64,000 bases of DNA from positions 1 through 64,000 of IMG/VR virus record IMGVR_UViG_3300003316_000399; one strand, 5' to 3'. The notes under the pieces are model-generated. The model was not told the origin of the DNA. It saw only the letters and a list, made by a program, of their open reading frames with translations, and searched no databases. Positions 1 to 16,091 of the stretch are shown one piece after another (position 1 is the first letter of the stretch; each line of letters begins with the position of its first letter). Made by a program: the position numbers and the translations under genes. Origin of the DNA: a virus (Duplodnaviria; Caudoviricetes).

Positions 1-1329
1 CTAAGACGCCTCTTCCAGATCAACATATGCTTCATTGCTCTTGATCAAACCCTCCAGCTCATAGAAGATTTCAGATTTAGACTTTATAAATTCAACGCCG
101 CCGTCATTTGACTCGCAGCGCAATACAATACCCTCACGTATATGATTACCCAACTCATTCGCAGCATTAGTATAATATTTTACCATCTCACACATGCGAT
201 GATATGATTCTTCAGTTCCGTCGTAATACATTACTGTGTCGAGCGGCACAGGTGTTAAACCAAGTGATCGACAGGCTGCCACCATCTGAGACCATGATAA
301 ATCAAACGCATTACCATCAGGTCCCACCTGAGTGACGCGATATACAAACAGTTTTAATTCTCCAGGATCACAACCATACGTATATCGCATTGTATCGCCA
401 TAACGTTGCTTGAGACTAGGAAATTTATGCAGTGGTTGCGGCTCCATAATTAATTCTGTGCTATTATGATAACCTACCAGCTCATAATAAATCATCATTC
501 CTTTTGGTAACTTAATACCACGGAGAGAACTGGCACGAAATGTGTTATCCCCATAATATCCATTATATGGGTTCTTCATTACATCCTCTGCAGTACCGAG
601 GATAAGAGTGCGAGTCCCAATAATGTGTTTCCACACCATCGGAACATTATTAGCAATTCCTAGACATGATTGTAGCCATCGGACAAAGCGATTTTTAACG
701 TCGTTCAACAACGGCGCGTCAAATGGAATATTGCCAAAGCGCCCGCTTGTGCCATGCAGTTTGTGAGTGAATACAATCACACCAGGCTTAATCGCGCGTG
801 AATGTGCAAAGAAATGCTGACTCTTCACGTGATCAGGAAACATCGGGTGTGTAACACGCACGGCTTTGTATCGTGCTGCAATGGCTGCCAGGGTTGCTAG
901 TGTATGCCGCTTGCGAAAAATAGGGAAAAATTTCCCGTCATCTCGCTGCCATCCAGACCAGCTAAAATCATCTGCCGCGTTGCACCATTCACCCTGAGTA
1001 AGATTACGAGTTTGACAGTCATCAATGTAATCGAGATATTTTAATGGGCACCAAAATCCTGTGCTACGGACACCTCTGAAATTCTGTGCGCGAACACTTC
1101 CATTATCCTCAAAATAGCCACCTAAATCACGATAAAGCTTGTTAGCGGTGAGAAAATCTGCATGCAACTCTCCATCTGAGGGGAAAAAGATTCCTACATC
1201 ACCATCCTGTGTGTCAAGACTTACAATAACCGTCGCGCTTAATGTATCGTTGTTAGGCACCGCGATTTTGATGCGATCTGCATTTGGATGCTGACGTGTT
1301 ACTACGGATGTAATATATGCTTTGTACAT
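1..1329 (-). CDS. ATP-dependent RNA ligase (DRB0094/Rnl2-like) with N-terminal OB-like domain
   Basis: Nucleotidyltransferase motif I KLHGT, motif IV REGIVLR and motif V FIKSKS; N-terminal HPNADRI typical of the DRB0094 family; near Pnkp. Confidence 0.88.
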   Translation of the reverse strand: MYKAYITSVVTRQHPNADRIKIAVPNNDTLSATVIVSLDTQDGDVGIFFPSDGELHADFLTANKLYRDLGGYFEDNGSVRAQNFRGVRSTGFWCPLKYLDYIDDCQTRNLTQGEWCNAADDFSWSGWQRDDGKFFPIFRKRHTLATLAAIAARYKAVRVTHPMFPDHVKSQHFFAHSRAIKPGVIVFTHKLHGTSGRFGNIPFDAPLLNDVKNRFVRWLQSCLGIANNVPMVWKHIIGTRTLILGTAEDVMKNPYNGYYGDNTFRASSLRGIKLPKGMMIYYELVGYHNSTELIMEPQPLHKFPSLKQRYGDTMRYTYGCDPGELKLFVYRVTQVGPDGNAFDLSWSQMVAACRSLGLTPVPLDTVMYYDGTEESYHRMCEMVKYYTNAANELGNHIREGIVLRCESNDGGVEFIKSKSEIFYELEGLIKSNEAYVDLEEAS

Positions 1330-2923: not shown

Positions 2924-3832
2924 CTAAAAGTTCCCAGCAGCCACTTGACAACAACGAAGTCCAAGCGACCGCCACATATTCACAACACTATCCCGATCGT
3001 CAAAGACAAGCTTCACATCATACCACGGCTCAATACACCGACGGTAAATCTCTTCTTTTACAATGTGATCAGGTCGAAAATCATTAAACCCGCGCATGAA
3101 GAGTGATCGATATCCCCAGTCTTCATGACCATCCCATTCATAAATACCCGCGTTTTCCAGAGCTTGTTTAGTGTACCATCGCGCCTCGGCACGTCGGCCT
3201 GAGACAAGAATGATAGTGTGATCATTGATCCGATTGTACATATTGTAAAGATTGACAATCGGATCAATTGGCACATCGTCTAAAATTGCCTTCCCAAAGA
3301 AACCATCCCAATTCTTGGGAGATTGCTCAAGGAAATGCTTTCGATGTTCAATGTCAAACAACGTACCGTCGAGATCAAAAATAACTGCTGGGATCTTCTC
3401 ACTGCCGGGTGGAAGGGCAGGATATTTACCCGCGTCTTTGAACATCTTCTCAATGACACTAGCACCCACGGAATGTGTGCGTTTAGCATCTCGCTGGACA
3501 CATGTCTCAAAGTCCACGTGCCAGAAATCATGCTTTACTACAGTGTAATTATATTTCTCTGCTAGATTCTTCCATCTCTGGACTGTTCGAGGATTGGTGT
3601 TTGTGTTGTCGATGATTATATTCCAAATTCCATCCGCAAGCACGGCCTCAGCATAATCAAACATGTACTGCTGAACATACCGCTCATGCAATTCTGGATT
3701 CTTATAACGCAGCTCATCAGCATTCACGTATGCCCAAAATCCATCAGTAGGATTACCACTGTCCATCAATTGTTTACGGAATGTTGTTTTTCCTGAGGCG
3801 GGTGGTCCAATTAGGATACACATAATTGGCAT
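2924..3832 (-). CDS. pseT: polynucleotide 5'-kinase / 3'-phosphatase (T4 PseT-like)
   Basis: N-terminal P-loop GPPASGKTT and IIIDNTN; C-terminal HAD motifs FDLDGTL, LVSGR and VFDDR. Confidence 0.93.
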   Translation of the reverse strand: MPIMCILIGPPASGKTTFRKQLMDSGNPTDGFWAYVNADELRYKNPELHERYVQQYMFDYAEAVLADGIWNIIIDNTNTNPRTVQRWKNLAEKYNYTVVKHDFWHVDFETCVQRDAKRTHSVGASVIEKMFKDAGKYPALPPGSEKIPAVIFDLDGTLFDIEHRKHFLEQSPKNWDGFFGKAILDDVPIDPIVNLYNMYNRINDHTIILVSGRRAEARWYTKQALENAGIYEWDGHEDWGYRSLFMRGFNDFRPDHIVKEEIYRRCIEPWYDVKLVFDDRDSVVNMWRSLGLRCCQVAAGNF

Positions 3833-7760: not shown

Positions 7761-8363
7761 TTACATATCTCCACGGGATGCTAGTTTCCCCGCTACTGAA
7801 TCGAACGCACTGTCGGACACACTAAACGCATTATTCGCCCCACTATCCGATGTGATAAAAAATCTATTACTGTGCCCCTCAGATATATGTTGTGCAATTA
7901 CATTGTGCAATTGTTCCTGTTGCGCACGTACAAACTCTTCCTGCGTATACACATTGACAGGACATTCTCGGGGTGGCTCTTGTGCAGGGTAGTCAAGATT
8001 GCAAAATCTTTTCGCGGATTCCCATCCAAATTCAATCTGAACATTCTGTCGAATATGCAACTCCTGGTGACGATCCTGTACAACATCCGTAGTCCTGCAC
8101 AATTCGTAATGTCCAGTTTTTACTGCTTCAACATAGTACCACTGGTCAAGTGAACTTGTGCGCTCCACAATCATGCAATCGACAATCGGCATTCCACGAT
8201 ATTGAGAAACGCGCTCCATAACGCCTACGCCATAATGTGCGGCGTAGCCGCTGTTGAATGGTACCATATCTGGAGGCAGCGGAATCTCTGGAGCGGACAG
8301 CATTTTAACGATCATTAATCCTGCTACAAACTTGTTAAATAAACTAAATAAAATCATATACAT
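7761..8363 (-). CDS. exported RlpA/double-psi-barrel-like protein
   Basis: Hydrophobic N-terminus; GYAAHYGVGVMERV...C...TDV...IEF pattern. Confidence 0.5.
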   Translation of the reverse strand: MYMILFSLFNKFVAGLMIVKMLSAPEIPLPPDMVPFNSGYAAHYGVGVMERVSQYRGMPIVDCMIVERTSSLDQWYYVEAVKTGHYELCRTTDVVQDRHQELHIRQNVQIEFGWESAKRFCNLDYPAQEPPRECPVNVYTQEEFVRAQQEQLHNVIAQHISEGHSNRFFITSDSGANNAFSVSDSAFDSVAGKLASRGDM

Positions 8364-8994: not shown

Positions 8995-9070
8995 TGGCGT
9001 GCCTGAAGGGACTTGAACCCCTGACCATCCGCTTAGAAGGCGGGTGCTCTATCCACTGAGCTACAGGCAC
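8995..9070 (-). tRNA. tRNA-Arg(UCU)
   Basis: Cloverleaf with GTGCCTG/CAGGCAC acceptor, CT-TCT-AA loop, GGTTCAAGTCC T arm and encoded CCA. Confidence 0.95.
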
Positions 9071-10651: not shown

Positions 10652-10921
10652 CTAATCCTCTGTGCCAGGATCATAATTCGGGTTCGGTTCACCAATCCTC
10701 CCGGCATGAGCGTTACTTCCACATATTGGACAAGCCTCAACACCTGTATAACTATAACGACAACGACAATCCAAGCACATTACAATTACTGGTAGATATG
10801 GACCAGAGCCTGGCTCACGTGGCCTTGTTTCACGCTCGTGTAGACGACGTGCCTCACGCTCCCAGGCCCGGCCAGCGCACCAATTATCCCACTTTTCCCA
10901 CAACCATCTGATAAAATTCAT
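10652..10921 (-). CDS. small zinc-ribbon protein
   Basis: CLDC...CPICG; RBS and its own promoter. Confidence 0.6.
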   Translation of the reverse strand: MNFIRWLWEKWDNWCAGRAWEREARRLHERETRPREPGSGPYLPVIVMCLDCRCRYSYTGVEACPICGSNAHAGRIGEPNPNYDPGTED

Positions 10922-12511: not shown

Positions 12512-12733
12512 TCACCGCTGCTCTATATAAGTCCAACGAACGACATTTTTTGTAGGTATAAACTGATTATATGTGCGCCAAGACTGCAGTTTGTAATAAT
12601 ACATACCCACATCAAATATTTTCTTCCATCCACGTGGCGTATATATTCTTAACTCAAGAAGAACAGTAACAGATACTGTTTCACCATCTGTAGGTTTAGG
12701 TAAAGACCCATCAGTAACCCAATCTAAACACAT
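12512..12733 (-). CDS. DUF551-like small hypothetical protein
   Basis: WVTDGSLP...VVRWT pattern. Confidence 0.4.
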   Translation of the reverse strand: MCLDWVTDGSLPKPTDGETVSVTVLLELRIYTPRGWKKIFDVGMYYYKLQSWRTYNQFIPTKNVVRWTYIEQR

Positions 12734-12874
12734 AAAAGATTACCCCCATTCAATTTTGCAAGGCCGGTGAGGTATCCAATCTTAGTATACACCAGATTTG
12801 CCCATTCTCCGTTTACTTTCCTTGCCTTGCAAGGGCTGATCAGGCCCTATAATCCATTCGATCGGTAGGACTAC

Positions 12875-12949
12875 TGGTACGCCTGACAGGAGTCGAACCT
12901 GCAACACTCGGCTTAAAAGGCCGCTGCGCTACCATTGCGCCACAGGCGT
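12875..12949 (-). tRNA. tRNA-Lys(UUU)
   Basis: ACGCCTG/CAGGCGT acceptor, CT-TTT-AA loop, GGTTCGACTCC T arm and encoded CCA. Confidence 0.93.
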
Positions 12950-12961
12950 GCAATAGCTAAA

Positions 12962-13032
12962 TGCATCTTGCGAGACTCGAACTCGCAACACCTGCTTGGA
13001 AGGCAGGCATGTTGCCATTACACCAAAGATGC
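12962..13032 (-). tRNA. tRNA-Gly(UCC), no encoded CCA
   Basis: GCATCTT/AAGATGC acceptor, CCTGC-CTTCCAA-GCAGG anticodon arm, TTCGAGT T loop; discriminator A. Confidence 0.9.
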
Positions 13033-13044
13033 ACATTAAAAAGG

Positions 13045-13109
13045 ACCGACCAGCTACAACATTGTAGGCGAATTGTGTACGACGCGGTAAAGACAATTCT
13101 CTGGTCGGT
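13045..13109 (-). ncRNA. putative structured small RNA (three-way junction)
   Basis: 9-bp closing stem ACCGACCAG/CTGGTCGGT enclosing hairpins GAATTGT/ACAATTC and CTACA/TGTAG; lies between tRNA genes. Confidence 0.5.
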
Positions 13110-13124
13110 AAGGAATAAATTAGC

Positions 13125-13228
13125 CACAGCCAGTAGGATTTGCACCTACAACAGTATTTCGGAGTGTGCATTCCCCGCTTTATCGGCTTATAAAAGCCGC
13201 CGTTTTTACTAATTAAACTATGGCTGTG
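13125..13228 (-). ncRNA. atypical tRNA-like RNA (8-nt anticodon loop, extra-long variable region)
   Basis: ACAGCCA/TGGCTGT acceptor, GTTT/AAAC D stem, CGGC-TTTTATAA-GCCG, extra hairpin CGGGG/CTCCG, GTAGG-TGCAAAT-CCTAC T arm. Confidence 0.7.
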
Positions 13229-13232
13229 ATAA

Positions 13233-13321
13233 TGGAGCGCAGCGGAATTGAACCGCTCTGCCGTCCACGAAGACGGCATATATGGCCCTGGCGTAAGGCC
13301 GGATCTTCCAGATCGCGCCCC
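13233..13321 (-). ncRNA. atypical tRNA-like RNA with alanine identity (G3:U70, A73)
   Basis: GGGGCGC/GCGCTCC-A acceptor, AGCGG-TTCAATT-CCGCT T arm, 7-bp extra arm TGCCGTC/GACGGCA, non-canonical D and anticodon arms. Confidence 0.7.
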
Positions 13322-13476
13322 ACAATATTAGATATTGTGTATGCCTGTCTCTCTGCTTTACTTGCGCTTACAGGCAACACCTTACGGTAAAAGGCAAGTT
13401 TTAAGGCTGCAGAGCTACCCACAGTCATTATAATTTCACGGTGTACGTCAGACTACGAATTAAGTACATCCGCACT

Positions 13477-13551
13477 TGGGAATGAGGACGGAATCGAACC
13501 GTCTCCGTGCGCTATCGCCGCACTACATCTACCAATGATGTTACGATTCCC
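13477..13551 (-). ncRNA. degenerate or atypical tRNA-like RNA (GAT at the anticodon position)
   Basis: ACATC/GATGT D stem, GTGCG-GCGATAG-CGCAC, GACGG-TTCGATT-CCGTC T arm, bulged GGGAAT/ATTCCC acceptor. Confidence 0.6.
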
Positions 13552-13553
13552 AA

Positions 13554-13629
13554 TGGTACGGGCGGAGGGACTCGAACCCCCGACGCGCTGTATATAAGAC
13601 AGCCGCTCTCACCTCTGAGCTACGCCCGT
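13554..13629 (-). tRNA. tRNA-Ile(UAU)
   Basis: ACGGGCG/CGCCCGT acceptor, GCTGT-CTTATAT-ACAGC anticodon arm, TTCGAGT T loop, A73 and encoded CCA. Confidence 0.9.
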
Positions 13630-13664
13630 ATTGAAAAATAAAAACGTAACAAAAACACAACTAA

Positions 13665-13693
13665 ATTGTAACACAGTGTACCATATTTGTCAA
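13665..13693 (-). promoter_or_regulatory. sigma70-type promoter of the tRNA/small-RNA cluster
   Basis: TTGACA-17nt-TACAAT with TGTGT extended -10, about 35 nt upstream of tRNA-Ile. Confidence 0.85.
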
Positions 13694-16005: not shown

Positions 16006-16091
16006 TGGTACCAGGGACGGGACTCGAACCCGTACGGGGTTGCCCCCAGCAGTTTTTAAGACTGTTGCGTCTGCCATTTCGCCACCCTGGC
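16006..16091 (-). tRNA. tRNA-Leu(UAA)
   Basis: GCCAGGG acceptor, TGGCGAAATGGCAGACGC D arm, CT-TAA-AA loop, class II variable arm GGGG-CAA-CCCC and encoded CCA. Confidence 0.95.

Follow-up and report, generated by a model that had tools for sequence, protein, structure and literature searches.

A phage tRNA operon in which ordinary tRNAs alternate with irregular, tRNA-derived RNAs

The window analysed here is the first 64 kb (64,000 nucleotides) of a 91.6-kb IMG/VR virus record, IMGVR_UViG_3300003316_000399, from an uncultivated phage (Duplodnaviria; Caudoviricetes). On its minus strand, which carries all genes of the phage, a strong promoter opens a stretch of about 0.94 kb without a credible gene, in which ordinary transfer RNAs (tRNAs) alternate with structured RNAs of non-canonical form, much as a preliminary description made from the sequence alone had proposed (Table 1). 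We consider it very probable that this array is a tRNA operon containing irregular RNAs derived from tRNAs. Our favoured reading goes further, namely that the phage retains two of these RNAs, designated E5 and E6, as tRNA mimics that do not decode, and to this reading as a whole we would give an even chance.

The promoter is the top-scoring site in the 9 kb between positions 8000 and 17000, a region whose total of promoter-like sites is no greater than that of shuffled sequences. Reading from it, the order is tRNA-Ile(UAU), the irregular RNA E3, a 154-nt spacer, E5, E6, E7, tRNA-Gly(UCC), tRNA-Lys(UUU) and a 141-nt leader, with the close packing that had been described, elements being separated by 2-15 nt. 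The open reading frames (ORFs) overlapping the array also overlap the tRNAs and show no PHROG family, save for one plus-strand ORF with a match at E 0.045, and a terminator scan of the array on the minus strand predicted none. The Rfam and ARAGORN scans suggested as a check were run, with cut-offs of 29 bits for the Rfam tRNA model (RF00005) and 47 bits for tRNA-Sec. The three canonical tRNAs and E6 lie above the Rfam cut-off, and E5 is called by ARAGORN. In addition, a strict scan for acceptor/T modules (7/7 acceptor pairs, 5/5 T-stem pairs and the T-loop motif) on both strands of the whole 91.6-kb record returned seven modules, corresponding to the five tRNAs of the phage plus E5 and E6, against 0.17 expected by chance.

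Table 1. Positions in the window of the array, its elements and the other genes discussed in the text.
Feature	Position	Strand	Evidence
Sigma-70 type promoter, TTGACA-17 nt-TACAAT, TG extended -10	13665..13693	-	11/12 matches
tRNA-Ile(UAU), canonical, CCA encoded	13554..13629	-	ARAGORN; Rfam tRNA 65.6 bits
E3, degenerate Ile(GAU)-like cloverleaf	13477..13551	-	Rfam tRNA-Sec 21.7 bits, E 0.18
Spacer, featureless	13323..13476	-	fold z -0.22 (13477-13328 folded), 74/200 shuffles as good; no Rfam match
E5, Ala-identity tRNA-like RNA	13233..13321	-	ARAGORN default: tRNA-Ala(cgc)
E6, tRNA fold with 8-nt anticodon loop UUUUAUAA	13125..13227	-	Rfam tRNA 46.9 bits (cut-off 29)
E7, Y-shaped three-way-junction RNA	13045..13109	-	-24.5 kcal/mol, fold z -3.67, 2/200 shuffles as good
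tRNA-Gly(UCC), canonical, CCA not encoded	12962..13032	-	ARAGORN; Rfam 68.2 bits
tRNA-Lys(UUU), canonical loop CUUUUAA, CCA encoded	12875..12949	-	ARAGORN; Rfam 67.7 bits
Leader of next ORF	12734..12874	-	fold z -0.33; GGGGG 12747-12743, 9 nt before ATG at 12733
First ORF past array, 73 aa, no known family	12512..12733	-	co-transcription with array probable
tRNA-Arg(UCU), outside array	8995..9070	-	ARAGORN, Rfam
tRNA-Leu(UAA), outside array	16006..16091	-	ARAGORN, Rfam
Polynucleotide kinase-phosphatase (PNKP)	2924..3832	-	Pfam HAD_PNKP 125 bits + AAA_33
RNA ligase, truncated at window start	1..1329	-	PHROG 968 E 8e-30; Pfam RNA_ligase 32.8 bits

E5 had been described as an Ala-identity RNA, and the evidence bears this out. 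All 28 of its 28 pairs are uninterrupted and its fold of -48 kcal/mol has a z of -4.33, with 0 of 200 shuffles as good. It carries the identity elements G3:U70 and A73, is the sole G3:U70 module of the record in the module scan, and combines this Ala identity with an Ala anticodon triplet, CGC. Alanylation needs no more than G3:U70 in a 7-bp helix, and E5 should therefore be charged by alanyl-tRNA synthetase (AlaRS). CCA is not encoded. The rest of the molecule includes a D stem of 4-5 bp whose 3-5-nt loop contains GG, a 5-bp anticodon-like stem with the loop UACGCCA (central CGC), an extra arm of 7 perfect pairs and a T arm of canonical form; a U8/A9 linker is absent. Because of A33 and C37 in the loop, E5 is probably not able to decode normally. 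Its best Rfam family is tRNA-Sec, at 26.8 bits and thus below the cut-off; an 8/4 drawing of the acceptor and T stems requires G8.U65 in place of A49-U65, whereas ARAGORN and the minimum-energy fold both give a 5-bp T stem. The bases AUCUGGA that follow the acceptor strand agree with the Rfam consensus of transfer-messenger RNA (tmRNA) at the same place, and the tmRNA (RF00023) and mt-tmRNA (RF02544) models gave no match to E5. No repeat copies of the extra-arm hairpin were found within the window.

E6, the tRNA-like RNA with an 8-nt loop, keeps all four stems intact in a 7/5 (acceptor/T) arrangement, and its fold z is -2.58. Its variable region holds an insert of about 30 nt with a 5-bp hairpin, at whose sides lie long unpaired linkers; residue 73 is G, position 55 in the T loop UGCAAAU is likewise G, and the D loop lacks GG. 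The 8-nt loop and the altered elbow suggest that E6 is not able to decode normally either. The phage's own tRNA-Lys(UUU) has exactly the same anticodon stem, down to a G27.A43 mismatch. Such a mismatch occurs in 12 of 414 phage tRNAs, and identical anticodon stems in 9 of 3373 within-record pairs of phage tRNAs of differing anticodon. Local alignment of E6 with tRNA-Lys gives a z of 5.7, and the E6 loop can be derived from the Lys loop by a C32-to-U change and the insertion of one A. In the acceptor and T stems, several pairs differ between the two RNAs and both are still fully paired. That they have the anticodon stem in common, rare mismatch included, is consistent with E6 being a tRNA-Lys look-alike. 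Paralogy of E6 with E7, with which it has an 11-mer in common, was considered and rejected as not significant. A start with A1-U72 and C2-G71, rather than the usual G1-C72, is found in tRNA-Ile (first base 13629), E6 (13227), E7 (13109) and tRNA-Lys (12949), and also in tRNAs of related phages (Tyr in relative G001 and Thr in relative G005). This looks like a habit of the lineage, suggesting that E6 and E7 arose within the phage group.

The three-way-junction RNA, E7, also folds far better than its shuffles. All 21 of its 21 pairs form, a 9-bp closing stem enclosing a 7-bp hairpin (16-nt loop) and a 5-6-bp hairpin, and the 3' strand of the latter continues without a gap into the closing stem, in the manner of a T arm joining an acceptor stem. 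The closing stem is followed by CC and five U, yet the "loop" between its strands is a 47-nt branched insert and the terminator scan gives no call. E7 has no match in Rfam at E up to 10, its own covariance model (R2) found no second copy, and it should not decode normally because it has no anticodon arm. E3, previously described as a degenerate GAT tRNA, is indeed present, but as a weak element, with a fold z of -1.99 and an ARAGORN call in mitochondrial (-mt) mode only. It comprises a 6-bp acceptor stem, 5-bp D and anticodon stems, the loop GCGAUAG with C33, a D loop retaining GG, and a canonical T arm extendable to 7 bp with one bulged C; CCA is absent, there is one mismatch, and a 2-nt slip separates the T and acceptor stems (6/7 with a bulge). 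Because of C33 and the slipped junction it should not decode normally, and it is most likely a decaying tRNA. A canonical tRNA has a 7-nt anticodon loop, U33 and a purine at 37, from which E6 departs by loop length, E5 by A33 and C37 and E3 by C33. The elbow contacts of G18/G19 with 55/56 are lost in E6, while E5 and E3 retain the D-loop GG and a canonical T loop.

Two further elements of the preliminary description fold no better than their shuffles. What had been called a hairpin-rich spacer and a last 9-bp-closed element (12874-12740) are a plain spacer and the mRNA leader of the next ORF, not discrete structured RNAs; the 71-aa ORF overlapping the spacer has no family and no ribosome-binding site. 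The general statement that the odd elements keep well-paired stems under non-canonical loops consequently holds for at least three of them (E5, E6 and E7), and not for these two, which are unstructured beyond chance.

On this basis we propose the following explanation. The near-consensus, host-type promoter would drive a polycistronic minus-strand transcript, probably running on into the downstream small ORFs, from which three working tRNAs (Ile-UAU, Gly-UCC and Lys-UUU) and the four tRNA-derived RNAs interspersed among them would arise. An acceptor helix stacked on a T arm is the module recognised by RNase P, the 3' trimming enzymes and the CCA-adding enzyme. Since E5, E6 and, more loosely, E7 retain this helix, they are likely to be excised as discrete stable RNAs in the way tRNAs are. 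E5 and E6 would then be maintained as non-decoding mimics, E5 being alanylated by AlaRS, and E6 offering the copied tRNA-Lys anticodon stem with a spoiled loop, a potential look-alike for arm-binding proteins, whereas E7 might be a processing or partial-termination element. Whether E5, E6 and E7 are kept by selection for structure appears to us evenly balanced.

The RNA ligase and PNKP genes form a T4-like tRNA repair pair lying 9-12 kb downstream of the array. In T4, this pair mends tRNA-Lys cut by a nuclease. A decoy function for the odd RNAs, judged from gene content and sequence likeness, fits both the repair genes and the relationship of E6 to tRNA-Lys, and is plausible but unproven; that anticodon nucleases specifically are the enzymes decoyed is possible, but we think it rather unlikely. 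If it were so, E6 would act as a dedicated bait for nucleases directed at the tRNA-Lys anticodon arm, so that the working tRNA-Lys, encoded 180 nt downstream, would be spared and repair by PNKP and ligase complemented. E5, charged with Ala, would tie up SmpB, AlaRS or another user of tRNA-Ala, and related phages would meet the same problem by means of tmRNAs reduced to their tRNA-like domain. A battery of mimics with multiple targets, combining E6 as nuclease bait with E5 as an Ala-charged mimic and representing a general, overlooked class of counter-defence RNAs, is an attractive extension that we nevertheless hold to be unlikely.

An independent Logan assembly (run SRR1926121) contains the same sequence with identical odd elements; exact look-ups of the neighbouring proteins led back to this phage in that run and nowhere else. 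The PolA protein of the phage is 24-28% identical to those of cultured phages (Pseudanabaena phages and crAss-like phages), and even the closest uncultured relatives reach only 45-50%. The five canonical tRNAs (Ile-UAU, Gly-UCC, Lys-UUU, Arg-UCU and Leu-UAA) match A-ending codons that are frequent in this AT-rich phage, AUA making up 19% of Ile codons, with GGA at 31%, AAA at 63%, AGA at 21% and UUA at 29% in their respective sets. IMG/VR labels the record a provirus. Beyond the window, the final 4 kb of the record (88000-91632, locus L089) show a climb in GC content from about 40% to 57-60%. None of the ORFs encoded there belongs to an informative family or is an identifiable host gene, so that this segment may be a host flank, a chimera or a distinct phage module.

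We searched widely for homologues of the odd elements. Covariance models of E5 (R1) and E7 (R2) found none in 50 PolA-related IMG/VR records or in the tRNA arrays of relatives, viral contigs contained no match to exact or degenerate patterns of E5 and E6, E5-type patterns were likewise without a match in JGI metagenomes, and GTDB genomes contained no E5 homologue. Comparisons of the array DNA with cultured phages, by both near and distant searches, returned generic tRNA matches only. Among the neighbouring proteins, one of 170 aa with a DUF7448 domain located no related locus when used as an anchor, and one of 283 aa had zero homologues among 5.8 billion proteins.

Distant relatives (PolA 37-42% identity) also bear irregular tRNA-like modules in their tRNA arrays. 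In G001 (PolA 42%, complete according to CheckV), a TTGACA-17-TATAAT promoter is followed by an ORF-free array of about 1.2 kb (L082:1358-2560) that mixes canonical and irregular tRNA-like modules. Two adjacent tRNAs of this array, at 2307-2420 (Lys-like) and 2426-2539 (Glu-like), have their anticodon region swapped for about 50 nt containing a -10-like TATAAT, a 7-bp hairpin and the motif TAAC(A/T)GC, which occurs four times at 102-115-nt spacing; the inserted stretch may represent a repeat element, a segment akin to an intron or an internal promoter. No second copy of the odd G001 tRNA was found in IMG/VR. Directly upstream of the array, G001 encodes a Ro60-like 432-aa protein with DUF2828 and DUF7788 (L082:71-1369), of which the record studied here has no homologue. 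Y RNA-like RNAs (YrlA, RF02553) combine a Ro-binding stem with a tRNA-like module and are usually neighbours of a gene of the Ro60 type; the one match to them in our array was dismissed, as it scored 20.8 bits against a cut-off of 69 and spuriously spans the Gly and Lys tRNAs. In a closer relative, the region L088:15721-21249 encodes a CCA-adding-type nucleotidyltransferase (PolyA_pol + HD), an RlaP protein and an RNA ligase, a gene content which suggests that tRNA maintenance genes vary across the phage group.

The arrays of two relatives, G005 (L084:2789-2871) and G002 (L085:1235-1313), contain tmRNA-like RNAs consisting of the tRNA-like domain only. These are 75-79 nt long (about 80 with CCA) and have G3:U70, A73, an encoded CCA and the 5' motif AUGGYGUCGAUU, with no coding region; ARAGORN makes no call on them and an Rfam scan of L084 gives no match there. 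G002 also has two modules of 64-68 nt (L085:3015-3078 and 10685-10752), each an acceptor stem and T arm followed by an encoded ACCA, again with no ARAGORN call. A pattern search added about 13 further message-less, Ala-acceptor tmRNA-like RNAs on unrelated viral contigs (loci L095, L106, L109, L112, L114, L131, L137, L146, L152, L153, L160, L161 and L167), as well as one metagenome locus (L210:2266-2346) and two in Chloroflexales metagenome-assembled genomes (L220 and L227), the whole set measuring 81-114 nt. Three of them (L146, L167 and L131) are aligned by Rfam to tmRNA with the middle of about 300 nt deleted (34-47 bits). To our knowledge, that of DS6A is the only published phage form of message-less tmRNA, and the number of viral contigs with short Ala-acceptor tmRNA-like RNAs suggests that such mimics are commoner than this single example.

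The preliminary description put the array forward as a candidate undescribed system, which overstated the case, given several precedents (PMC3014915, PMC5389517, PMC4131195, PMC11915505). Stable non-tRNA RNAs, polycistrons of irregular tRNAs and reduced phage tmRNAs are already known, and it is the members of this array that are new. The T4 tRNA region yields two stable RNAs, C and D, whose roles are unknown (PMC3014915). T4 and the present phage have in common a tRNA cluster with small stable non-tRNA RNAs and a genome with PNKP and RNA ligase. The two phages are nevertheless unrelated, and the extra RNAs described here are recognisably derived from tRNAs, one having Ala identity and one copying the Lys anticodon stem. 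Allo-tRNAs are Sec-like RNAs whose extra arm and D stem are long and whose D loop is small, and some of them have G3:U70 and are charged with Ala; UAU is their commonest anticodon, many are apparently unused in translation, and they have been reported both as "polycistrons of irregular tRNAs" and within phage tRNA clusters (Mukai et al., Nucleic Acids Res 2017, PMC5389517). E5 resembles them in its long extra arm and its D stem with a small loop, and tRNA-Sec is the best Rfam family of E5 and E3. The defining 8/4 or 9/3 acceptor/T arrangement, however, is not evident, E5 and E6 folding best as 7/5, the anticodon loop is non-canonical in E5 and of 8 nt in E6, and the link to toxin-antitoxin systems is absent here.

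In mycobacteriophage DS6A and some organelles, tmRNA is cut down to its tRNA-like domain and has no coding region, and the DS6A-type form has been reported as an inhibitor of tmRNA in E. coli (PMC4131195, PMC11915505). E5 is likewise a short phage-encoded RNA of Ala identity, with G3:U70, A73, a T arm and the D-region motif, but it retains anticodon-like and D stems, has no encoded CCA and is not matched by the tmRNA models. Because E5 has only part of each of these feature sets, we do not file any odd element as a member of the allo-tRNAs or of the tmRNA domains. Phage tRNAs whose anticodon loops are unlike the host's have been proposed or shown to defeat anticodon nucleases (PMC10264068, PMC11555353). 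The present phage also encodes tRNA-Lys(UUU) and repair enzymes, but the tRNAs of those studies are working, nuclease-insensitive decoders, whereas E6 is not a normal Lys decoder. tRNA-Lys(UUU) is a classical target of anticodon nucleases, and we know of no pure decoy tRNA demonstrated so far.

The serious rival to maintained mimics is neutral decay, whereby the odd elements, E3 in particular, would be pseudo-tRNAs and remnants of duplications, insertions and deletions in a fast-turnover cluster, functionless and co-transcribed only through their position between working tRNAs; we rate this a real possibility, somewhat short of even. Several observations weigh on this side and against maintenance of E5 and E6. 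None of the relatives or collections searched yielded a homologue of E3, E5, E6 or E7, so that evolutionary evidence of constraint is missing, and universally conserved tRNA positions have been lost, as in pseudogenes, with non-canonical residues at 8, 18/19, 33, 37 and 55. Phage tRNA sets turn over fast and those of the relatives are very different; in the region L088:15721-21249 mentioned above, which comes from a PolA-50% relative (Logan contig SRR31357221_23), synteny is conserved and there is no tRNA. E3, with its mismatch and 2-nt slip, is statistically weak and passes a relaxed module scan only, for which 1.9 chance matches are expected. Even the perfect extra-arm hairpins could be recent insertions rather than selected structure, because the hairpin motif within two G001 tRNAs resembles an inserted repeat. 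Decay, on the other hand, does not readily explain why all pairs are intact in E5 and E7, at z -4.3 and -3.7 against about -0.2 to -0.3 for the spacers, or why the E6 stems are whole with paired changes relative to tRNA-Lys. The packing at 2-15 nt also resembles that of working tRNA operons, and irregular tRNA-like RNAs recur in the arrays of several related phages.

If the odd RNAs do function, they might do so otherwise than as non-decoding mimics. A message-less tmRNA analogue is one such role, in which E5 would titrate SmpB or enter stalled ribosomes and so damp the trans-translation of the host. E5 has the G3:U70, A73, T arm and AUCUGGA expected of it, and its 5' motif recurs in 85-105-nt Ala-acceptor RNAs on viral contigs; the Rfam alignments of L146, L167 and L131, the domain-only RNAs of G002 and G005 and the inhibition reported for DS6A (PMC4131195, PMC11915505) add to this. 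Nevertheless, the D stem and the 5-bp anticodon-like stem-loop of E5 are absent from the tRNA-like domain of tmRNA, E5 has neither a UCGAC-type start of helix P2 nor an encoded CCA, and the tmRNA and mt-tmRNA models miss it. A model built from the domain-only tmRNA-like RNAs (R3) does not discriminate, scoring E5 (28.6 bits) no higher than ordinary tRNA-Ala (33-46 bits), and common descent from the D loop of tRNA-Ala could explain the motif. We therefore hold the tmRNA role of E5 to be quite unlikely. Expanded anticodon loops are a classical mark of frameshift suppressors, and E6 could in principle be a suppressor or frameshifter (with a UUA ochre, UAU or four-base anticodon) and E5 a tRNA-Ala(CGC) reading GCG. 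The significant Rfam score of E6 and its Ser-like features (long variable region, G73) would agree with working, if unusual, decoders, as would the Ala identity of E5 with its CGC, GCG forming 22% of Ala codons, and the fact that decoding in E. coli is known for allo-tRNAs whose extra arm is long, including some that carry G3:U70 (PMC5389517). The standard code, however, leaves long genes intact, including one of 2830 aa, and an efficient ochre suppressor would be harmful since more genes end in TAA than in any other stop codon (28 of 51). With A33 and C37 in E5, no G18/G19-55/56 elbow contacts in E6, and an E6 variable hairpin set in long unpaired linkers, unlike that of tRNA-Ser, we consider unusual decoding very unlikely.

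The question of why phages carry tRNA genes has stood for 50 years and has recently been recast, in part, as an arms race against defences that cleave tRNAs. We know of no function ever assigned to the non-decoding RNAs of phage tRNA operons, such as T4 RNAs C and D, the stable RNAs of T5 or the tmRNA of DS6A. The present locus supplies compact candidates, in the form of E5, a predicted Ala-charged non-decoder, and E6, a copy of the Lys arm with a spoiled loop, beside the real tRNA-Lys of a phage presumably able to mend cut tRNAs. The wider occurrence of message-less tmRNA-like RNAs on viral contigs may outweigh the locus itself in importance.

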